From a virus (taxonomy: Duplodnaviria > Heunggongvirae > Uroviricota > Caudoviricetes): 8,823 nucleotides of DNA. Position numbers and translations under genes: made by a program. Location of the stretch: IMG/VR virus record IMGVR_UViG_2713896788_000033. One strand, written 5' to 3'. Positions 1 through 8,823 of this stretch are shown here, piece by piece; the first letter of the stretch is position 1; each line of letters starts with the position of its first letter. The notes beneath the pieces are model-generated. The model was given only the letters and a program-made list of their open reading frames with translations. It was not told where the DNA came from and did no database searches.

Positions 1-1
1 G

Positions 2-214
2 CGGAAAAACGGTGCTGAAATTTATAACCGTACCGCGCTGGATAATACGCTGATTTACAGTGGTGTTATTGATATGCCTGCCGGTCACGGTCACATGACA
101 CTGGAGTTTTCGGTGTCAGCATGGCTGGTAAATAACTGGTATCCCACAGCAAGTATCAGCGATTTGCTGGTTGTGGTGATGAAGAAAGCCACTGCAGGCA
201 TCACGATTAGCTGA
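2..214 (+). CDS. J: 3' end of tail-tip / host-specificity protein J (partial, start lies upstream of the window)
   Basis: Frame 2 is open from the window edge to TGA at 212-214 and encodes ...[64 protein letters not shown]. From memory this resembles the C-terminus of lambda J, and it sits directly upstream of lom as in lambda. Family assignment is recollection, not a search. Confidence 0.7.
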
Positions 215-230
215 ATTTTATAACCCAGAT

Positions 231-258
231 ACGGGCGCCAGAAATGGCGCCTTTTTTA
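231..258 (+). terminator. Rho-independent terminator-like hairpin between J and lom
   Basis: GGCGCC (232-237), 6-nt loop, GGCGCC (244-249), followed by TTTTTTATT (250-258). Confidence 0.5.
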
Positions 259-281
259 TTGCAGAAAAGCGAGAGGTAATT

Positions 282-881
282 ATGCGTAAATTATGTGCTG
301 TTATTTTGTCCGCAGTAGTCTGGCAGGTCGCCGCTGCTACGCCAGCGAGTGCAGCAGAACATCAGTCCACGCTGAGCGCGGGGTATCTCCATGCCTCGAC
401 GAACGTTCCCGGTAGTGATGATCTGAACGGGATTAACGTGAAATACCGTTATGAGTTTATGGACGCGCTGGGGCTGATTACGTCCTTCAGTTATGCCAAT
501 GCTGAGGATGAGCAAAAAACGCGCTACAGCGATACCCGCTGGCATGAAGATTCCGTGCGTAACCGCTGGTTCAGCGTGATGGCGGGGCCGTCTGTACGCG
601 TGAATGAATGGTTCAGCGCGTATGCGATGGCGGGTGTGGCTTACAGCCGTGTGTCGACTTTCTACGGGGATTATCTCCGCGTAACTGACAACAAGGGGAA
701 AACGCACGATGTGCTGACCGGAAGTGATGACGGTCGCCACAGCAACACGTCTCTGGCGTGGGGGGCTGGCGTGCAGTTTAACCCGACCGAATCCGTGACC
801 ATTGACCTTGCTTATGAAGGTTCCGGTAGTGGCGACTGGCGATCGGATGCATTTATTGTTGGTATCGGATACCGTTTCTGA
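282..881 (+). CDS. lom: Lom-family (Ail/PagC/OmpX-like) outer membrane beta-barrel protein, a lambdoid prophage moron
   Basis: 199-aa ORF with SD GAGAGG at 271-276. N-terminal signal peptide MRKLCAVILSAVVWQVAAATPASA|AE. Alternating aromatic/hydrophobic beta-strand pattern and C-terminal ...IVGIGYRF typical of small outer-membrane barrels. Position immediately after J matches lambda lom. Confidence 0.9.
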   Translation: MRKLCAVILSAVVWQVAAATPASAAEHQSTLSAGYLHASTNVPGSDDLNGINVKYRYEFMDALGLITSFSYANAEDEQKTRYSDTRWHEDSVRNRWFSVMAGPSVRVNEWFSAYAMAGVAYSRVSTFYGDYLRVTDNKGKTHDVLTGSDDGRHSNTSLAWGAGVQFNPTESVTIDLAYEGSGSGDWRSDAFIVGIGYRF

Positions 882-986
882 CAACAGACGCCGATTTATC
901 TTCTGTAAATATTGTTATGATACGCAGGTTCATCCACCTTATGGGGTGAACTGCGTTTGAGGAAACGTAAAGTTACACTGTCCTGA

Positions 987-1018
987 AGCCCGTGGCGTCA
1001 CTGCTGCGGGCTTTTTTT
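987..1018 (+). terminator. Terminator-like hairpin downstream of lom
   Basis: AGCCCG (987-992), 14-nt loop, CGGGCT (1007-1012), then a T-run (1012-1018). The long loop makes this weaker than the others. Confidence 0.35.
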
Positions 1019-1032
1019 ATTGGTGGAAAAGT

Positions 1033-1299
1033 ATGACAGTAAAAATTTCTGGCGTGCTTAAAGATGGCACAGGAAAACCAGTACAGAACTGCACCATTGT
1101 GCTGAAGGCCAGACGAACCAGCAGCACGGTGGTGGTGAACACGGTGGCCTCTGAAAATCCGGATGAAGCCGGACGTTACAGCATGGATGTTGAGTACGGT
1201 CAGTACAGCGTCATTCTGTTGGTGGAGGGATTTCCTCCGTCACATGCCGGGACCATCACCGTGTATGAAGATTCTCAACCCGGTACGCTGAATGATTTT
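1033..1299 (+). pseudogene. 5' fragment of a side tail fibre gene (stf N-terminal domain, 89 codons), truncated by the assembly gap
   Basis: [92 protein letters not shown] runs into the N-run. It is roughly 90-93% identical at the nucleotide level (by eye) to 1420-1686 of the full stf, so it is a diverged paralogous copy, not an exact duplicate. Confidence 0.7.
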
Positions 1300-1349
1300 N
1301 NNNNNNNNNNNNNNNNNNNNNNNNNNNNNNNNNNNNNNNNNNNNNNNNN
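1300..1349. other. Assembly gap (50 N)
   Basis: Run of n characters; true length and content unknown. Confidence 0.99.
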
Positions 1350-1381
1350 TTCTGATTAGCCAGGTAACACAGTGTTATGAC

Positions 1382-1409
1382 AGCCCGCCGGTTCAGGCGG
1401 GCTTTTTTG
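1382..1409 (+). terminator. Terminator-like hairpin immediately upstream of stf
   Basis: AGCCCGCC (1382-1389), loop GGTTCAG, GGCGGGCT (1397-1404), then TTTTTT (1404-1409). It ends about 10 bp before the stf SD and start. Confidence 0.5.
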
Positions 1410-1419
1410 TGGGGTGAAT

Positions 1420-4335
1420 ATGGCAGTAAAGATTTCAGGTGTACTGAAAGACGGCACAGGAAAACCGGTAGAGAACTGCACCATTCAACTGAAAGCCAGA
1501 CGTAACAGCGCCACGGTGGTGGTGAACACGGTGGCCTCTGAAAATCCGGATGAAGCCGGTCGTTACAGCATGGACGTTGAGTACGGTCAGTACAGCGTNA
1601 TTCTGTTGGTGGAAGGNTTCCCGCCGTCACATGCCGGGACCATCACCGTGTATGAAGATTCTCAACCCGGTACGCTGAATGATTTTCTTGGTGCCATGAC
1701 TGAGGATGATGTCCGTCCGGAGGCACTGCGCCGTTTTGAGCTGATGGTGGAAGAGGTGGCGCGTAACGCGTCCGCGGTGGCACAGAACACGGCAGCCGCG
1801 AAGAAGTCAGCCAGCGATGCCAGCACATCAGCCCGTGAGGCGGCAACCCATGCGACTGATGCTGCGGACTCAGCACGCGCAGCCAGCACGTCAGCCGGAC
1901 AGGCCGCGTCGTCGGCTCAGTCAGCGTCTTCCAGCGCAGGAACGGCATCAACAAAGGCTACTGAAGCATCAAAAAGTGCTGCCGCTGCAGAGTCCTCAAA
2001 AAGCGCGGCGGCTACCAGTGCCGGTGCGGCGAAAACGTCAGAAACGAATGCGGCAGTGTCACAACAATCAGCCGCCACTTCTGCATCCACCGCGACCACG
2101 AAAGCGTCAGAAGCTGCCTCCTCAGCCAGGGATGCGTCGGCTTCAAAAGAGGCGGCAAAATCATCAGAAACGAGCGCAGCCTCGAGCGCCAGTAGTGCAG
2201 CCTCCTCGGCAACGGCGGCAGGCAATTCCGCGAAGGCGGCCAAAACGTCTGAGACAAACGCTAAGTCCTCTGAAACGGCAGCAGAACAGAGTGCCTCCGC
2301 AGCAGCAGGCTCAAAAACAGCGGCTGCATTATCTGCCAGTGCCGCGTCAACAAGTGCCGGGCAGGCCTCAGCCAGTGCCACCGCCGCCGGAAAATCGGCA
2401 GAAAGTGCCGCATCGTCTGCTTCAACAGCCACAACGAAGGCTGGCGAAGCCACTGAACAGGCCAGCGCAGCAGCGAGTTCTGCTTCCGCAGCGAAGACAT
2501 CCGAAACGAACGCGAAAGCGTCGGAAACCAGCGCAGAATCCTCAAAAACGGCTGCCGCATCGTCAGCCAGTTCGGCGGCGTCATCGGCATCATCTGCGTC
2601 TGCTTCAAAAGATGAGGCGACCAGACAAGCGTCAGCAGCGAAGAGCAGCGCCACGACGGCATCCACGAAGGCGACAGAGGCAGCTGGTAGTGCGACGGCA
2701 GCAGCTCAGAGCAAAAGTACGGCGGAATCTGCAGCAACGCGCGCTGAGACAGCGGCAAAACGGGCAGAGGATATTGCATCCGCCGTGGCGCTTGAGGATG
2801 CGAGCACGACGAAAAAGGGGATAGTACAGCTCAGCAGTGCGACTAACAGCACTTCCGAGTCACTGGCGGCAACGCCAAAAGCCGTTAAGGCCGCGTATGA
2901 GCTGGCTAACGGGAAATACACCGCACAGGATGCAACGACAGCACAGAAAGGGATAGTTCAGCTTAGCAACGCGACCAACAGCACATCTGAAATGCTGGCG
3001 GCAACGCCAAAGTCGGTAAAGGCAGCCTATGACCTTGCTAACGGGAAATATACTGCTCAGGACGCTACGACAGCACAAAAAGGAATTGTCCAGCTCAGTA
3101 GTGCAACCAACAGCGCATCTGAAACGCTTGCCGCGACACCGAAAGCAGTGAAAGCAGCTAATGATAATGCGAATGGTCGGGTACCTTCTGCCCGTAAGGT
3201 GAATGGTAAGGCGCTTTCATCGGATATAACACTGACGCCGAAAGATATTGGTACGCTTAACTCAACAACAATGTCATTCAGCGGTGGTGCTGGTTGGTTC
3301 AAATTAGCAACGGTAACCATGCCACAGGCGAGTTCTGTTGTTTCAATTACGTTGATTGGTGGCGCGGGATTTAACGTGGGGTCACCTCAACAGGCAGGTA
3401 TATCTGAACTTGTTTTGCGTGCAGGTAATGGTAATCCGAAGGGGATTACTGGTGCTTTATGGCAGCGCACATCGACAGGGTTTACAAATTTTGCCTGGGT
3501 CAATACATCTGGTGATACTTACGATATTTACGTTGCAATCGGAAATTATGCGACTGGTGTAAATATTCAATGGGATTATACCAGTAATGCCAGCGTGACG
3601 ATTCATACGTCACCAGCATATTCTGCTAATAAGCCGGAAGGGTTAACGGACGGTACAGTTTATTCACTCTATACGCCATCAGAGCAGTTTTATCCGCCTG
3701 GCGCACCAATCCCGTGGCCATCAGATACCGTTCCGTCTGGCTATGCCCTGATGCAGGGGCAGACTTTTGACAAATCTGCATACCCGAAACTTGCAGCCGC
3801 TTATCCGTCAGGCGTGATCCCTGATATGCGTGGCTGGACGATTAAGGGCAAACCTGCCAGTGGTCGGGCCGTATTGTCTCAGGAACAGGACGGCATTAAA
3901 TCGCACACCCACAGCGCCAGCGCATCCAGTACGGATTTGGGGACGAAAACCACATCGTCGTTTGATTACGGCACTAAATCCACGAATAACACCGGGGCGC
4001 ACACGCACAGTGTGAGCGGTACAGCCGCAAGTGCCGGAAACCATACTCATAGTGTCACAGGCGCATCAGCAGTCAGCCAGTGGTCACAAAATGGGTCAGT
4101 ACATAAGGTAGTGTCTGCGGCCAGTGTGAATACAAGTGCTGCAGGAGCGCACACTCATAGTGTCAGCGGCACAGCTGCATCTGCAGGTGCTCACGCACAT
4201 ACTGTCGGTATTGGTGCTCATACGCACTCTGTTGCGATTGGCTCACATGGACACACCATCACCGTTAACGCTGCGGGTAACGCGGAAAACACTGTCAAAA
4301 ACATCGCATTTAACTACATTGTGAGGCTTGCATAA
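1420..4335 (+). CDS. stf: Side tail fibre protein (lambda Stf-like; distal part related to T4 gp37-type fibres)
   Basis: The track ORF starts at GTG 1414, but ATG 1420 preceded by GGGGTG is the likelier start. Conserved N-terminal domain [16 protein letters not shown]... Long Ala/Ser/Thr-rich low-complexity shaft. Three tandem 44-aa repeats [44 protein letters not shown]-terminal His-rich HxH repeats and terminal ...[22 protein letters not shown]. Contains ambiguous bases at 1599 and 1617. Stop TAA 4333-4335 overlaps the tfa start. Confidence 0.9.
2815..3210 (+). repeat. Three in-frame tandem repeats of 132 bp (44 aa) inside stf (phage tail fibre repeat)
   Basis: Repeat units begin at 2815, 2947 and 3079, a period of exactly 132 bp. 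Peptide units are [88 protein letters not shown] and [28 protein letters not shown]..., the third diverging after about 3160. Confidence 0.9.
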
Positions 4336-4916
4336 TGGCATTCAGAATGAGTGAACAACCACGGACCATAAAAATTTATAATCTGCTGACCGGAACTAAT
4401 GAATTTATTGGTGAAGGTGACGCATATATTCCGCCTCATACAGGTCTGCCAGCAAACAGTACCTATATTGCACCGCCAGATATTCCGGCTGGCTTCGTGG
4501 CTGTTTTCAACAGTGATGAGTCATCGTGGCATCTCGTTGAAGATCATCGGGGTAAAACGGTTTATGACGTGGCTTCCGGCGACGCGTTATTTATTTCTGA
4601 ACTCGGCTCATTACCGGAAAATGTTACCTGGTTATCGCCGGAAGGGGAGTTTCAGAAGTGGAACGGCACAGCCTGGGTGAAAGATGCAGAAGCAGAAAAA
4701 CTGTTCCGGATCCGGGAGGCGGAAGAAACAAAAAACAGCCTGATGCAGGTAGCCAGTGAGCATATTGCGCCACTTCAGGATGCTGTAGATCTGGAAATCG
4801 CAACGGAGGAAGAAGCCTCATTGCTGGAAGCCTGGAAAAAGTATCGGGTGTTGCTGAACCGTGTTGATACATCAACTGCACCTGATATTGAGTGGCCTGT
4901 AATACCTGAAGTTTAA
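4335..4916 (+). CDS. tfa: Tail fibre assembly protein (Tfa; chaperone for the Stf tip, T4 gp38-related C-terminal domain)
   Basis: 193-aa ORF whose ATG (4335-4337) overlaps the stf stop as TAATG, the classic stf-tfa coupling. Its C-terminal segment ...[37 protein letters not shown] is the conserved Tfa C-terminal domain and recurs in the fragment at 8577-8696. Confidence 0.85.
4754..4874 (+). repeat. Left copy of an approximately 120-bp direct repeat (tfa 3' end) bracketing the cargo
   Basis: Hand alignment of 4754-4874 against 8577-8696 gives about 13 mismatches in 120 bp with no indels (about 89% identity). Confidence 0.8.
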
Positions 4917-4921
4917 AATAA

Positions 4922-4947
4922 AAGCCCGCTTAAAATATCGCGGGCTT
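4922..4947. terminator. Hairpin between convergent tfa (+) and katN-like (-) genes; possible bidirectional terminator
   Basis: GCCCGC (4924-4929), 10-nt loop, GCGGGC (4940-4945). It is flanked by an A-run on the 5' side (4914-4922), which is a U-run for the minus-strand transcript, and only a short TT on the + side. Confidence 0.45.
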
Positions 4948-5035
4948 CGAAATATAAATGTATTTTCAGAGGCTAGAGCTTAGGATATCTCAGCGGCAAT
5001 TAACTTATGAGGGATAGCTAAATACCAGAAGATAA

Positions 5036-5926
5036 TTAGTTTTTACTATTTATCTTTGTTTGTGGTTCTCCTTCAGCAAGCTCAGCGCCAGTGACAGGAT
5101 TGATGTCTTCATGGGATTTCAACCTTGTTGCCATAGCTTTTATCATAGCTTCTTGCTTGGTCGAAAGATTTATCGAGGCCTTCCCATCCCCACCGTCAAC
5201 CGCTGAAACTGGATCGGAAACATAGTCAAAGTTTTCATCACTGTTCCAACTACCTCTGACGTCTTCACCTTCTGACATGTTGTAATATACGTTTTTGTAT
5301 TTCTCAAGTGGTGGTAATTTTCCTGGTGGAAAGGTGTTACGAATTGAATGTAATGCTTTTTCAAATGAAAGCATGTGTGCTGCTTCCCGGGTCATTAAAA
5401 ATGCCAGAGTGTCTTTTACTCCAGGATCATCAGTAACATTAATGAGACGTTCGTAAATGATCTTTGCCCGAGCTTCAGCTGCAATATTTGAACGAAGATC
5501 GGCCGTGACTTCGCCAATAGTATCAACATAAGCTGCAGTCCAGGGTACTCCAGCTGAATTAGTTAATGCTGGGCCTCCTCCGTAGAGGAGAGAAGTTATA
5601 TGGCTATCATTGCCATTTTGAGTTAAGGAACGGTAAAGCTCAGCTTCATTCTCAGTTCCTTCAGCAAGTGCTCCTTTTGCACCTTTGTTGAGCATACCAA
5701 CAAGAGAACCAATAATTTCGAGATGACTTAGTTCTTCTGTTGCTATGTCCATCAGCATATCCCTTCGGCCTGCATCTTCATCACTTAAGCCTTGAGTGAA
5801 GTATCGGCATGCTGCTGCAAGCTCACCCTGTGGCCCACCGAATTGTTCTAAGAGTAGATTAGCCAAGCCTGGGTTTGGCTCACTTACACGTACTGTATAT
5901 TGAAGTTTTTTCACGTGTCTAAACAT
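5036..5926 (-). CDS. katN: Manganese (non-haem) catalase, KatN-like
   Basis: 296-aa ORF with a strong SD (GAGGAGG, reverse complement of 5930-5936) 4 nt before the ATG. N-terminus MFRHVKKLQYTVRVSEPNPGLANLLLEQFGGPQGELAAACRYF and two ExxH motifs (TEELSHLE, TREAAHML) match the dimanganese-site signature of the Mn-catalase family. It is the last gene of a yciG-yciF-yciE-katN arrangement like the one known in Salmonella. Confidence 0.8.
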   Translation of the reverse strand: MFRHVKKLQYTVRVSEPNPGLANLLLEQFGGPQGELAAACRYFTQGLSDEDAGRRDMLMDIATEELSHLEIIGSLVGMLNKGAKGALAEGTENEAELYRSLTQNGNDSHITSLLYGGGPALTNSAGVPWTAAYVDTIGEVTADLRSNIAAEARAKIIYERLINVTDDPGVKDTLAFLMTREAAHMLSFEKALHSIRNTFPPGKLPPLEKYKNVYYNMSEGEDVRGSWNSDENFDYVSDPVSAVDGGDGKASINLSTKQEAMIKAMATRLKSHEDINPVTGAELAEGEPQTKINSKN

Positions 5927-5944
5927 AATGCCTCCTCAAAAGAA

Positions 5945-6451
5945 TTATTTTTTGGCTTCAACTCCATCAATTTCAGATCTGACCATGAATTGCTCAGTGG
6001 TGTCAGGAATATGGTTAAGAAGCCATTCAGCCATTTGTTTTTCTTCATTAAGAATTGCTTCAATAATGGGTACTGAAGCTGTATCACCCGCATTTTTGGC
6101 TGCTGCGAGAAGAGATGTGTAACACGCAATTTCAAATTGTTCGAACACATAGCCACTGATCGAACCTTTGACAATTTCATCAGATGGAAAAATTCCACCA
6201 ATGGATTGTCCAAACGCGGCCATTTTACTCATAGAGTCTTTAATGACAGAGCGCGAAATATTATTACGATCAAGTATGCTTTCAAGCTGTGAAAGCTGGT
6301 TCTTTGTTTCGCTAATGTGCTGCTCAATTCTGGAACGTAACTCAGGATAGTTTTCTATCCGGCTGGCCATAGACTCAAGCATTTTTTCAGCTTGTTTTTC
6401 CATCGCATGTGCATCACGAAGCCAGTCATGGTAATGTTCAATTCTATTCAT
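5945..6451 (-). CDS. yciE: DUF892 ferritin-like stress protein, YciE-like
   Basis: 168-aa ORF with SD AGGA upstream (reverse complement of about 6456-6462). N-terminus MNRIEHYHDWLRDAHAMEKQAEKML carries the DUF892 motif (D-x-[YH]-x-[AM]-E-K-Q). Gene order matches yciGFE. Confidence 0.8.
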   Translation of the reverse strand: MNRIEHYHDWLRDAHAMEKQAEKMLESMASRIENYPELRSRIEQHISETKNQLSQLESILDRNNISRSVIKDSMSKMAAFGQSIGGIFPSDEIVKGSISGYVFEQFEIACYTSLLAAAKNAGDTASVPIIEAILNEEKQMAEWLLNHIPDTTEQFMVRSEIDGVEAKK

Positions 6452-6487
6452 AATCTGTTTATCCTAAAAGAAATTGAAGTCTATAGT

Positions 6488-6988
6488 TCAGGAGTTATCC
6501 TGAGCTTTTTTATTAACGTTATTAAATGCCAGGTCTGTTAATTTGACATCAGTAGCTTTTTCCTCTTCCAGTGTTTCTTTCAGGAGTTTAGCCGCTTTTT
6601 TATATCCTAATTGCTCAGCGAGTGTTACCAAAGTGCCATAACTGGCAATTTCATAGTGCTCTACTTTTTGTGCTGCAGCAATCAATGCAGCATCACGTAC
6701 TTCATTTTTATCAGTGCTTTCAATTACCTCATTCGCCTCTTCGATAAGTCCTTCCATTGCGGCACACTTAATTCTTTTCAATTTAAGACCATCTTCAGAA
6801 TCAACAACCTGATCGATGCGTTCAATTTGACCATGTGTCTCATCAAGATGTGACTGAAAAGCAGCGGTTAATTTATCACTATATGCAGAGCGACTAAGTT
6901 TAGACAGTGCCTTTGTTAGTTGTTTCTCAGCGCTGTATGTATCCGATAATAAGTGGATGAAGATATCTTCAACAGATTTAATTTGCAT
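6488..6988 (-). CDS. yciF: DUF892 ferritin-like stress protein, YciF-like
   Basis: The track ORF starts at GTG 6994 (MIMQIK...), but ATG 6988 preceded by GGAG with a 5-nt spacer is the likelier start (MQIKSVEDIFIHLLSDTYSAEKQLTKAL...). It carries the DUF892 motif LSDTYSAEKQ and is a paralogue of the adjacent YciE-like gene. Confidence 0.8.
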   Translation of the reverse strand: MQIKSVEDIFIHLLSDTYSAEKQLTKALSKLSRSAYSDKLTAAFQSHLDETHGQIERIDQVVDSEDGLKLKRIKCAAMEGLIEEANEVIESTDKNEVRDAALIAAAQKVEHYEIASYGTLVTLAEQLGYKKAAKLLKETLEEEKATDVKLTDLAFNNVNKKAQDNS

Positions 6989-7006
6989 AATCACTCCAGA
7001 GTTTTC

Positions 7007-7030
7007 ACTGCGAGCCCGTAGGCTCGCAGT
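7007..7030 (-). promoter_or_regulatory. Perfect 10-bp stem / 4-nt loop hairpin in the yciG-yciF intercistronic region
   Basis: ACTGCGAGCC (7007-7016), loop CGTA, GGCTCGCAGT (7021-7030). No U-run follows on the transcribed (minus) strand, so it looks like an intra-operon processing or stability element or a partial attenuator, not a full terminator. Confidence 0.5.
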
Positions 7031-7066
7031 TAGCTTCAGTTATTCACGAATGTAGGGGGTGATAAA

Positions 7067-7249
7067 TTAAGAGTCAGATTTACGGCCGCCACCATGGCTA
7101 TTCTGACCACCTTTTTTCCCTGCTTCTGATGCTCTTTGTGGATCGTTTTTAAAATTACCGCCACTATGTTGGCCGCCTTTACGACCAGCGTCAGAAGCTT
7201 TTTGTCGATCTTCAGCGAAATTACCTGCACCGCCACGATGTTCGGTCAT
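7067..7249 (-). CDS. yciG: KGG-repeat general stress protein, YciG-like
   Basis: 60-aa Gly/Lys-rich ORF MTEHRGGAGNFAEDRQKASDAGRKGGQHSGGNFKNDPQRASEAGKKGGQNSHGGGRKSDS with two KGG-type repeats (GRKGGQHSGGNF, GKKGGQNSHGG). SD GAGGAGAA (reverse complement of 7255-7262) precedes the ATG. First gene of the operon. Confidence 0.75.
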   Translation of the reverse strand: MTEHRGGAGNFAEDRQKASDAGRKGGQHSGGNFKNDPQRASEAGKKGGQNSHGGGRKSDS

Positions 7250-7272
7250 ATCATTTCTCCTCTGATTTTCAA

Positions 7273-7299
7273 ATTGTAAATAACATGTGCCTTGTCAGC
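7273..7299 (-). promoter_or_regulatory. Candidate promoter for the yciG-like operon (minus strand)
   Basis: On the minus strand: -35-like CTGACA (reverse complement of 7294-7299), about 15 bp spacer, -10-like TACAAT (reverse complement of 7273-7278), about 25 nt upstream of the yciG ATG. The spacer is short, so a stationary-phase sigma-factor-type promoter with a degenerate -35 is plausible. Prediction by eye only. Confidence 0.3.
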
Positions 7300-7746
7300 A
7301 CCCAATTAACTCTAGTAACAAATAAGAAAGTGTCAAATAAGAGATTGGTATGCGCATCTTAATGTGAGAAATAGCAATTGTAAAAATGTGTACTCAGTGA
7401 GTATAATCTGTTGATATCTTGGTGATTAACGGAAAGTTTAGGTTGTAACTCAAAAGATTAATAAATCTAAATTTACATTTCTATATCTTTTGATGTGTAT
7501 GGCGTTGTTTTTCTCAATCAGAACATTCTAAAAAATAATTTAATTACACGGCGGTAGTTGTTAATGTTTTTACGACTCTTCCTAATGAAGTCTGTTTCTT
7601 GGATAAATAGAGAAATTTTATCTTAAGGACTAATTACAAAAACATCTATATAGCCACAGGAATCATTATTGTACTTAACTACAATATTTGAGAGTAAAAA
7701 TTAAACCGCAGACACGGCGTATGCAAGAACGTGCTGCGGTTGGATG

Positions 7747-8415
7747 CTATTTTTTCCCTGAAGCGGAAAACATTACTACAGTACCTTGAACCTTGGTTTT
7801 AACATTCTCGAAATGCTCTGAGAGTATATGTGTTAAGCCTTCTTCGGAATCTTTTGTGTTTGAAAAGATGCCTTTCTGATTGTAAATGCGCATCAGTTTT
7901 TGACCGAAGCTATTGTGCACAACTCCATCGCCAAGAATTGTGGCTCCGTATAGAGTTCCATCGTCAGTTAAGGCCTGCGCCGCATTGCGTATTACACAGC
8001 TTTTTGTAGATATATTTCCAGGCAGGCAGTGAAGAAGGTAAAACATGGAAATGGAATCAAATTGACCATGTAACGCCGCGGGATAAGGTTCAAAAACATC
8101 ATGGCTAATTTTATGTTTAATTTTTGATTCCCCAGCCCTTGTAGATGCCGCGTTCAGGCTAGCTTCGTTCAAATCCATTAAAGATATCAGACTACTCTCA
8201 GGTACGTGAGTAAGGTAAAACCCAGTTCCAACACCAATATCCAGATGGTTGTTACCTAAATGTTCCAGAAAGTGTGGAAGAAGGTGTTCCTTTGTAGGAC
8301 ATCCCCATGCAAGACGATTTGATACTCCCAAAACCCACCAGTCATAAAGCTTTAGGGTAAGTGGTGTGTAAATTTTAGCCCCATCATCTGTGTTTTTTTT
8401 CATTAATTTCACCAT
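7747..8415 (-). CDS. Class I SAM-dependent methyltransferase (orphan; target unknown)
   Basis: 222-aa ORF; the likelier start is the internal ATG (reverse complement of 8401-8403), which has a GGTGA SD, giving MKKNTDDGAK... Rossmann motif I HLDIGVGTGFYL (hh-D-h-G-x-G-x-G), an acidic residue after beta-2 (SLMDLNE) and a DDGTLY motif typical of small-molecule/RNA class I methyltransferases. From memory, a methyltransferase gene (ybcY) lies between two tfa genes in E. coli K-12 prophage DLP12; this arrangement is similar, but the homology is unverified. Confidence 0.6.
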   Translation of the reverse strand: MVKLMKKNTDDGAKIYTPLTLKLYDWWVLGVSNRLAWGCPTKEHLLPHFLEHLGNNHLDIGVGTGFYLTHVPESSLISLMDLNEASLNAASTRAGESKIKHKISHDVFEPYPAALHGQFDSISMFYLLHCLPGNISTKSCVIRNAAQALTDDGTLYGATILGDGVVHNSFGQKLMRIYNQKGIFSNTKDSEEGLTHILSEHFENVKTKVQGTVVMFSASGKK

Positions 8416-8471
8416 GTTATAGTTTTATTTGTGAATTAAATCAATTATGGCGATGAATTACAAGGGGTTAA

Positions 8472-8720
8472 ATGCTGCCGCAGCATAGCGATATTGAAAT
8501 AGCCTGGTATGCTGCGATACAGCAGGAGCCGAATGGCTGGAAGACCGTCACCACACAGTTCTACATCCAGGAATTCAGTGAGTATATTGCGCCACTGCAG
8601 GATGCTGTAGATCTGGAAATCGCAACGGAGGAAGAAAGATCGTTGCTGGAGGCATGGAATAAATATCGGGTATTGTTGAATCGTGTTGATACATCAGTAG
8701 CTCGTAAGCGTACAGCCTGA
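8472..8720 (+). pseudogene. 3' remnant of a second tail fibre assembly (tfa) gene
   Basis: 82-aa ORF whose C-terminal half ...[38 protein letters not shown] matches the C-terminal domain of the tfa at 4335-4916 (nucleotide similarity 8577-8696 versus 4754-4874). The N-terminal 35 residues show no similarity to the full Tfa and there is no convincing SD, so this is probably a recombination remnant whose ATG is fortuitous. Confidence 0.6.
8577..8696 (+). repeat. Right copy of the approximately 120-bp direct repeat (tfa 3' end)
   Basis: See the left copy: same orientation, same reading frame, similarity ends at ...GTTGATACATCA. Confidence 0.8.
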
Positions 8721-8823
8721 ACCGTCTGGTCAGAATCTGACGAATTAGACAAAGTGGTGCCCACCAAATAAGTAGTGGGAACCAAAGTATCAGATATGCA
8801 GAAAAATGTGACTCCCGGCAGGC

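Follow-up and report, generated by a model that had tools for sequence, protein, structure and literature searches.

The side tail fibre module of phage lambda consists of stf and tfa and is embedded in the layout J-lom-stf-tfa. In lambda and in mosaic lambdoid fibres, like that of E. coli 700462, the N-terminal PF08400 domain is conserved and the distal fibre is variable. The 5' segment which codes for this domain is already known as a conserved joint for the exchange of lambdoid fibre modules, and by comparison with lambda Stf the domain presumably attaches the fibre to the tail. E. coli O157:H7 carries about nine J-lom-fibre loci (nine in strain Sakai). In Sakai prophage Sp8, the genes ECs_1649-ECs_1657 encode lom, stf, tfa and a cargo of Mn catalase, DUF892 and KGG genes; the same locus is found in the closed EDL933 genome (CP008957). 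In Sakai prophage Sp9, ECs_1806-ECs_1808 encode J, lom and a short tail fibre of 437 aa, which is followed by an 89-aa ORF and the effector genes nleA, nleH and nleF.

The window, a stretch of 8,823 nt which by its sequence is E. coli O157:H7 DNA, shows the same J-lom-stf-tfa layout but contains two fibre starts. The fibres of lambda and E. coli 700462 are single genes, and the two starts of the window would come only from the way in which the scaffold was joined. We consider it very probable that the window spans a scaffold junction of two contigs from different prophages in a draft O157:H7 assembly and not a tandem duplication. The identities, map positions, repeat boundaries and allele pattern on which this reading is based were observed directly. 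The following features were identified:

1-214, + strand: 3' end of the tail-tip gene J, Sp9 type; identical to Sakai Sp9 ECs_1806, the end of which corresponds to window position 214
282-881, + strand: lom (Ail/Lom outer-membrane protein), Sp9 type; Pfam PF06316 (E = 1.7e-122), identical to ECs_1807
985-1014, + strand: terminator-like hairpin after the Sp9-type lom; 13-pair stem, then T-run
1033-1299, + strand: copy 1, 89 codons from the start of the short tail-fibre gene ECs_1808 (Sp9 type, 437 aa), cut by the contig end; 100% identity to Sakai Sp9
1300-1349, no strand: run of 50 Ns, very probably a scaffold spacer between two contigs that are non-adjacent in closed genomes; flanks 141-557 kb apart in closed O157:H7
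1350-1355, + strand: last 6 nt (TTCTGA) of the Sp8-type lom ECs_1649, from comparison with Sakai Sp8; start of the right contig
1382-1403, + strand: terminator-like hairpin after the Sp8-type lom; 8-pair stem (7 GC pairs), then T-run
1420-4335, + strand: stf, Sp8 type (ECs_1650), complete, 971 aa, beginning with copy 2 (1420-1686); identical to Sakai Sp8 and closed EDL933 barring two Ns; Pfam PF08400, Phage_fiber_2 and Collar
1599, + strand: ambiguous base; T in Sp8, Sp4, Sp11, Sp12, Sp14 and Sp15, C in Sp9 and Sp10; silent third position of Val60 (GTN)
1617, + strand: ambiguous base; G in Sp8, Sp4, Sp11, Sp12, Sp14 and Sp15, A in Sp9 and Sp10; silent third position of Gly66 (GGN)
4335-4916, + strand: tfa (ECs_1651), tail fibre assembly chaperone of the Sp8 stf; PF02413 (E = 8e-45)

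Two tail fibre starts

The original prediction described two stf starts, each with its own upstream hairpin and Shine-Dalgarno (SD) sequence, as a diverged duplicate of the stf 5' end of which the first copy runs into an assembly gap. This description holds: the N run occupies exactly 1300-1349, and the two 267-nt copies (1033-1299 and 1420-1686) align without gaps with 243 of 265 positions identical (91.7%). Their proteins differ at 5 of 89 aa. The region 1006-1299 matches the 5' region of the Sp8 stf far above chance (BLAST E = 5.5e-104). PF08400, the Pfam family of prophage tail fibre N-termini, is found in copy 1 (89 aa, E = 3e-50, family positions 1-89 of 134), in the Sakai Sp8 stf protein encoded by copy 2 (E = 3e-72) and in the Sp9 short fibre (E = 1e-68), and by this domain both copies belong to the lambda-type side tail fibres (Stf). 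The further hallmark of Stf, a fibre gene placed after J-lom and followed by tfa, is present for copy 2 (lom stop, stf at 1420-4335, tfa at 4335-4916). Copy 1 also sits after J-lom but is truncated by the gap, and its counterpart in closed genomes is followed not by tfa but by an 89-aa ORF matching PF06820 (Phage_fiber_C).

A hairpin with a T-run lies upstream of each start, two in total where 0.3 are expected from shuffled sequences, and an SD-like purine-rich stretch was recognized by eye before each start. An Rfam scan of 860-1700 at gathering thresholds gave no match.

Left and right part match different prophages

The left part (1-1299) shows 100% identity to Sakai Sp9 and no more than 91% to the other eight Sakai J-lom-fibre loci. 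Its lom is only 88.7% identical to the lom of Sp8. In all 10 long contigs among the matches listed for the exact Lom protein of the window, lom is followed, after a 151-nt spacer, by the 437-aa-class fibre position, the 89-aa ORF and nleA, and in none of them by a 971-aa stf.

The right part (1350-8823) is identical to Sakai Sp8, closed EDL933 and many other O157:H7 genomes, with mismatches only at the two Ns. In Sakai Sp8 and closed EDL933, unlike in the window, stf follows the J-lom of Sp8 itself after a 64-nt spacer, with a single fibre start and no gap; this true upstream region is 88.7% identical to the left part of the window. The genes 3' of tfa in Sakai Sp8, closed EDL933 and matching contigs comprise catalase, two DUF892 genes, KGG, a methyltransferase, a tfa remnant and ISEc8. 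A site-specific invertase of the Mu Gin, P1 Cin or e14 Pin type was not found among the genes annotated or called there, and the tfa remnant (8472-8720) lies in direct rather than inverted orientation.

The left contig ends with 63 nt that recur without change at 1624-1686, as would be the case if both contigs overlapped at a single locus and the left 5' stf segment were an error-rich miscall of copy 2. This is hardly conceivable. The 22 called differences are not noise, as copy 1 belongs to a genuine Sp9 allele with 100% identity over 1299 nt, and the left contig carries a different lom and the 151-nt instead of the 64-nt spacer. Each half exactly matches a distinct locus in closed genomes, and we regard the single-locus overlap as refuted.

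Arrangement in closed genomes

The positions of both halves were compared in the 8 closed genome records that occur among the matches listed for both. The halves either share a strand at a distance of about 141-149 kb or lie on opposite strands with about 399-557 kb between them. In the same-strand cases the left part is located downstream of the right part, which is the reverse of the window order. In Sakai, the segment 1033-1299 is part of Sp9, whose fibre gene follows the Sp8 stf at a distance of about 149.5 kb, in contrast to its upstream position in the window. Sp6, which is located upstream of Sp8, was considered as a collinear source of the left contig but has no J-lom-fibre locus; Sp5 was dismissed because its tail is unrelated.

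A joint search with a 2400-nt query was carried out against 5,426 closed E. coli genomes. The best joint place showed 96% coverage and 94.9% identity over a span of 2013 bp. This span equals 2400 minus the 387-nt offset between the copies, so it contains a single stf start. Neither a tandem arrangement nor a near-identical hybrid was found in any of the 5,426 closed genomes. Gap-free O157:H7 assemblies have one stf start at this place and carry the 1033-1299 segment elsewhere, in Sp9, which is the outcome that the original prediction had named as its refutation. Of the two options left by the original prediction, these data favour the scaffolding or collapse artefact, with flanks identical to two separate prophages, Sp9 and Sp8, which lie far apart in closed O157:H7 genomes.

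The other option was a second fibre module hidden in the gap. Both starts have the same orientation, each has a terminator and an SD-like stretch, and the 50-N run is not a measured size; the gap could contain the rest of the first fibre gene, perhaps with an accessory ORF, and a second lom ahead of the second stf/tfa. Since the right contig opens with a lom stop, not only the remainder of one fibre gene but a whole second lom has to be placed in the gap. Moreover, the two flanks are identical to two different prophage loci, each of them complete and at a location of its own, the 10 long contigs with this Lom among the matches listed do not lead to a 971-aa stf, and in none of the 5,426 closed genomes are the halves joined at a distance of up to about 1.7 kb. 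Each of the nine Sakai loci has just one fibre start, and two fibre modules in tandem were seen neither there nor in the contigs examined. True tandem modules are extremely unlikely, and this option of the prediction is not supported.

Large rearrangements flanked by prophages are documented in O157:H7 (PMC8991562), and a strain-specific junction is conceivable. Unequal crossing-over in the direct-repeat 5' segments of the Sp8 and Sp9 fibre genes could produce a tandem duplication of about 150 kb, with a novel junction in which the Sp9 J-lom-5' stf is fused to the body of the Sp8 stf. The contigs would then be linked by read pairs spanning this junction, the right contig would take its Sp8-type 5' end from the unrearranged copy, and the apparent gap would be a negative overlap. 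The direct repeats lie 149.5 kb apart and have a stretch of 65 identical nt in common, inside a region of about 380 nt with 89% identity, and the window order, with Sp9 left and Sp8 right, is exactly that of the hybrid expected from such a duplication. In E. coli 700462, a copy-1-type start (98.5%) is naturally fused to a long stf in one ORF. If the duplication of the segment from Sp8 stf to Sp9 stf were real, the doubled start of the window would show the parental and the recombinant junction collapsed into one, and the tail would be a hybrid in which the Sp9 J-lom drives the long Sp8 side tail fibre. However, the homology is short and diverged, which makes it a poor substrate for RecA-mediated recombination, and a high-identity hybrid occurs in 0 of 5,426 closed genomes. 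Mis-scaffolding induced by repeats fits the same data without a rare event, and we judge the rearrangement to be very unlikely.

Contig ends coincide with repeat boundaries

Exact repeats among the nine Sakai J-lom-fibre loci were mapped. A 318-nt exact repeat common to Sp8, Sp4 and Sp15 starts at position 1350, which also lies within longer exact repeats of 636 nt with Sp11 and Sp12 and of 729 nt with Sp14. Position 1350 is also the exact midpoint of the 636-nt Sp8/Sp11/Sp12 repeat; a split in the middle by an algorithm was considered but dropped because Sp4 and Sp15 show a true repeat boundary. The other contig end, position 1299, lies 63 nt into an exact repeat of Sp9 and Sp10 (last base discriminating the two at 1236) and 2 nt before the fork between Sp9 and Sp8. 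Three signs of a repeat-induced mis-join occur together: the flanks of the N run are located at non-adjacent loci in closed genomes, the contigs end on exact-repeat boundaries and ambiguous calls are found at sites that discriminate paralogues.

Ambiguous bases and paralogous alleles

The two ambiguous bases fall where the copies differ, as had been noted before: the bases of copy 1 that correspond to the Ns are C (1212) and A (1230), and closed Sp8 has T and G. The probability that two random positions both hit copy-discriminating sites is about 0.008, and for a coincidence of the Ns with paralogue-discriminating sites it is about 4e-4 to 8e-3. The original prediction had suggested a mixture of reads from paralogous copies as the cause. 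This is plausible for reads of the Sp9 or Sp10 type: across 1512-1688, Sp10 differs from Sp8 at 1599 and 1617 only, and Sp9 differs there too. Copy 1 alone cannot account for the Ns, since the remaining 22 copy-discriminating sites are called without ambiguity. The N pattern is only partly explained, as the joint differences of Sp9 and Sp10 from Sp8 at 1503-1511 are called cleanly. Calls are also unambiguous at 1668 and 1671, where five paralogues differ. Sp11 and Sp12 were ruled out as a cause because both are identical to Sp8 at the two sites.

Draft contigs and the original EDL933 record

In public assemblies, these genes usually lie on short contigs: the lom of the window is found on contigs of 2-5 kb in 2202 of 3630 index blocks and its tfa on contigs of 5-10 kb in 671 of 929 index blocks. 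Three draft contigs bearing this tfa begin either within the final 204 nt of lom or shortly after the start of stf, 27-40 nt inside the gene (window positions 1447 and 1460). Exact-protein searches with the 108-aa ORF that spans the gap and with the N-containing stf gave no match. The original Sanger record of EDL933 (AE005174.2), which has gaps and more than 6,000 ambiguous calls (PMC4132626), is similar to the window in several respects. It carries a 'wrong' J-lom before the same stf, an Sp15-like one (99.7%) in place of the different J-lom in PacBio-closed EDL933; the change of J-lom falls on the repeat whose first base is window position 1350, and single Ns are scattered in the prophage repeats. 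In contrast to the window, with its Sp9-like left part, the upstream block is Sp15-like and the join is seamless, without an N run; the record was therefore rejected as the source of the window.

Probable scaffold join of two prophage contigs

The preferred reading, a scaffold join, can be described as follows. The left contig (1-1299) would come from an Sp9-type lambdoid prophage and comprise the 3' end of J, lom, the 151-nt spacer and the first 267 nt of the short fibre gene. The right contig (1350-8823) would come from an Sp8-type prophage and comprise the lom stop codon, the 64-nt spacer, the 971-aa stf, tfa and the stress-gene cargo. The fibre genes of O157:H7 share the conserved 5' segment encoding the PF08400 domain, which is a multi-copy near-exact repeat, and assemblers would break contigs in this segment for that reason. 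A scaffolder may then have set the two repeat-bounded contigs side by side with a fixed spacer of 50 Ns. The single Ns would be consensus ambiguities at which Sp10-type or Sp9-type reads, or graph bubbles, differ from Sp8. We infer the behaviour of assembler and scaffolder and the mixing of reads from the pattern of the sequence, and the non-adjacency of both parts in the source strain from other O157:H7 genomes. The paralogues are real and already known; their adjacency is most likely not real.

The exact repeats behind such breaks among the nine Sakai J-lom-fibre loci are now mapped, and the original and closed EDL933 references disagree at the same joint. Draft scaffolds of prophage-rich genomes such as O157:H7 should be read with caution, as they can juxtapose tail-fibre modules of different prophages. 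Such joins make fibre genes look duplicated or truncated and create chimeric host-range modules, and they would mislead prophage typing, the cataloguing of receptor-binding proteins and pseudogene counts.

Apparently duplicated fibre gene start in the window

The original prediction described a duplicated 5' end of the side tail fibre gene (stf), and this description proved accurate, far beyond chance (BLAST E about 1e-104). Copy 1 (1033-1299) and copy 2 (1420-1686) are 267-nt homologues which align without gaps, with 243 of 265 positions identical, and their translations differ in 5 of 89 residues. In Pfam, the prophage tail fibre N-terminal domain (PF08400) was matched by copy 1 and by the protein of Sp8, a prophage of E. 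coli O157:H7 Sakai, which is encoded by copy 2. Terminator-like hairpins are located 5' of both starts (985-1014 and 1382-1403; 2 observed, 0.3 expected from shuffles). The region contains the following ambiguous bases:

1300-1349, run of exactly 50 Ns
1599 and 1617, single Ns; copy 1 has C and A at the opposite positions

Origin of the two halves

A megablast search of 5,426 complete E. coli genomes with 1350-8823 revealed full-length matches, listed at 100.0%, in O157:H7 strains, including Sakai (annotated prophage Sp8) and the PacBio-closed EDL933. Sakai differs from this part solely at the two single Ns, where Sp8 has T and G. This right part opens with TTCTGA, the final six bases of Sp8's own outer-membrane protein gene lom (ECs_1649), followed by a 64-nt spacer, a 971-aa stf (ECs_1650), the fibre assembly chaperone gene tfa and cargo genes for a Mn catalase, two DUF892 proteins, a KGG protein and a methyltransferase. 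The Sp8-type organisation of the tail-tip gene J, lom and stf was also found in closed EDL933, and 22 of the 27 contigs read that carry the window's tfa show an Sp8-type neighbourhood.

Searched separately, 1-1299 gave 100% matches in the same closed genomes but at a different place. In Sakai the counterpart lies in prophage Sp9 and comprises the 3' end of J (ECs_1806), lom (ECs_1807), 151 nt of spacer and a fibre start, namely codons 1-89 of ECs_1808, which encodes the short tail fibre of 437 aa. Against the J-lom of Sp8 itself, identity is only 88.7%. In each of the 10 long contigs shown with the exact Lom protein, the short-fibre position comes 151 nt after lom, ahead of an 89-aa ORF and nleA; eight of these contigs have a called fibre ORF of 437-438 aa.

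Each half exactly matches a distinct closed-genome locus, which refutes the reading that one locus was assembled twice, with errors. Neither fibre gene is unusual: both belong to the lambda Stf / PF08400 family and reside in known Sakai prophages, Sp8 and Sp9. Hallmarks of a dual or invertible fibre system were tested and not found: neighbouring fibre genes in one prophage, inverted cassettes or, among the genes 3' of tfa in Sakai Sp8, closed EDL933 and the matching contigs, an invertase.

Further features of the right part

2813-3158, + strand, 132-nt tandem repeat inside stf (2.6 copies, 78% matches)
4678-4876, + strand, Rfam IS009 match (229 bits, gathering score 117)
5036-7236, - strand, stress-gene cassette, prophage cargo directly 3' of tfa
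7747-8415, - strand, SAM-methyltransferase
8472-8720, + strand, tail fibre assembly protein remnant (82 aa, PF02413)

The tandem repeat corresponds to three Pfam Phage_fiber_2 repeats. The Rfam match lies wholly within the tfa coding sequence, so that the "RNA family" here coincides with the conserved tfa 3' coding region. The cassette, which is similar to the katN/yciGFE cluster, consists of genes for the Mn catalase (296 aa), a pair of ferritin-like DUF892 proteins (168 and 166-168 aa) and a KGG general stress protein of 60 aa. Between the KGG and methyltransferase genes, a roughly 490-nt AT-rich stretch (7260-7746) has no ORF of at least 40 aa and no Rfam match at the gathering threshold; it is presumably the promoter and regulatory region of the cassette. 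The cargo genes and the methyltransferase separate tfa from its remnant, of which 121 nt (8576-8696) match the 3' end of intact tfa at 89% identity (compared 4754-4874). In Sakai, ISEc8 is located beyond the window end.

Repeat boundaries and ambiguous bases

Among the Sakai lambdoid prophages, whose tail regions were all examined, nine have a J-lom-fibre locus (Sp3, 4, 8, 9, 10, 11, 12, 14 and 15). In a register-anchored comparison, the right contig starts at 1350, precisely where an exact repeat of 318 nt (1350-1667) common to Sp8, Sp4 and Sp15 begins, and this position is also covered by longer repeats, likewise exact, of 636 nt (with Sp11/Sp12) and 729 nt (with Sp14). The left contig ends at 1299, which is 63 nt inside an exact repeat of Sp9 and Sp10 (1237-1462, copy-1 register), 15 nt inside a repeat common with five further prophages and 2 nt ahead of the divergence of Sp9 and Sp8. 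The 63-nt overhang may stem from assembly by a k-mer graph, which at k about 64 would leave such an end. Public draft assemblies break in the same way: the window's lom occurs on 2-5 kb contigs in 2202 of 3630 index blocks and its tfa on 5-10 kb contigs in 671 of 929, and three example draft contigs with this tfa start in the final 204 nt of lom or 27-40 nt into stf, the latter at window positions 1447 and 1460.

The original Sanger record of EDL933 (AE005174.2) contains gaps and more than 6,000 ambiguous calls (PMC4132626). Its J-lom 5' of the same stf (locus L025, 1-3400) was compared with closed EDL933 (CP008957.1, locus L003) and Sakai Sp15 (locus L012). It is 99.7% identical to Sp15 (Sp15/CP-933V-like), whereas closed EDL933 has an Sp8-type J-lom there. 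The type switch is located at the repeat beginning at window 1350, and the joint is probably a mis-join of the 2001 assembly at this repeat. The window does not come from this record, which has no N run here and a different upstream block.

The single Ns had been attributed to mixed reads from paralogous copies. Both are silent third-codon positions at paralogue-discriminating sites, with T (1599) and G (1617) in Sp4, 8, 11, 12, 14 and 15 and C and A in Sp9 and Sp10; the chance that two random positions both land on such sites is 4e-4 to 8e-3. Over 1512-1688 Sp10 differs from Sp8 at these two positions only, so reads or graph bubbles of Sp10 (and Sp9) would be nearly indistinguishable from Sp8 there. 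However, other discriminating sites are called cleanly, namely 1503-1511 (Sp9 and Sp10 jointly against Sp8) and 1668 and 1671 (five paralogues), for which the paralogue set of the source strain or the assembler would have to account. Mixed paralogue support therefore appears a good but incomplete explanation.

Arrangement of the halves in closed genomes

Distances were compared in the eight closed O157:H7 records found in the top lists of both half-searches. In four, the halves lie on one strand at a distance of 141-149 kb and the left part comes downstream of the right, the reverse of the window order; in the other four they lie on opposite strands, 399-557 kb apart. With a 2400-nt junction-spanning query, neither a tandem arrangement nor a near-identical Sp9/Sp8 hybrid was found in 5,426 closed E. 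coli genomes. The best joint place (96% coverage, 94.9% identity) spans 2013 bp, which is 2400 minus the 387-nt copy offset, so that what it covers, in non-O157 strains, is only one fibre start.

If the direct fibre 5' repeats of Sp8 and Sp9 underwent unequal crossover, exactly such a hybrid would result, Sp9 on the left and Sp8 on the right, and large prophage-flanked rearrangements are documented in O157:H7 (PMC8991562). That the link is the true junction of a roughly 150-kb tandem duplication is nevertheless improbable. True tandem fibre modules in one prophage, one of the two readings originally proposed, are scarcely credible: the halves are not adjacent in closed genomes, and a second lom and the remainder of a fibre gene would be needed within the gap, for which there is no support. 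The other reading, a scaffolding artefact, is supported. Very likely, contigs from two prophages were joined and the paralogues, though real, do not lie side by side; a scaffolder would have linked the two repeat-bounded contigs with a fixed 50-N spacer. The apparent stf duplication is most likely not a real genomic feature.

In E. coli 700462 (NZ_CM128581.1, locus L029, 4001-8397), one of the non-O157 strains with a joint place, J-lom, the 151-nt spacer and a copy-1-type start are 98.5% identical to window 1-1299. This start continues as a single ORF into a long stf of 930 aa, and tfa comes next. This natural mosaic shows that the conserved fibre 5' segment is a genuine module-exchange joint. 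The window serves as a worked example of draft assemblies that break and are wrongly joined at conserved fibre N-terminal segments.
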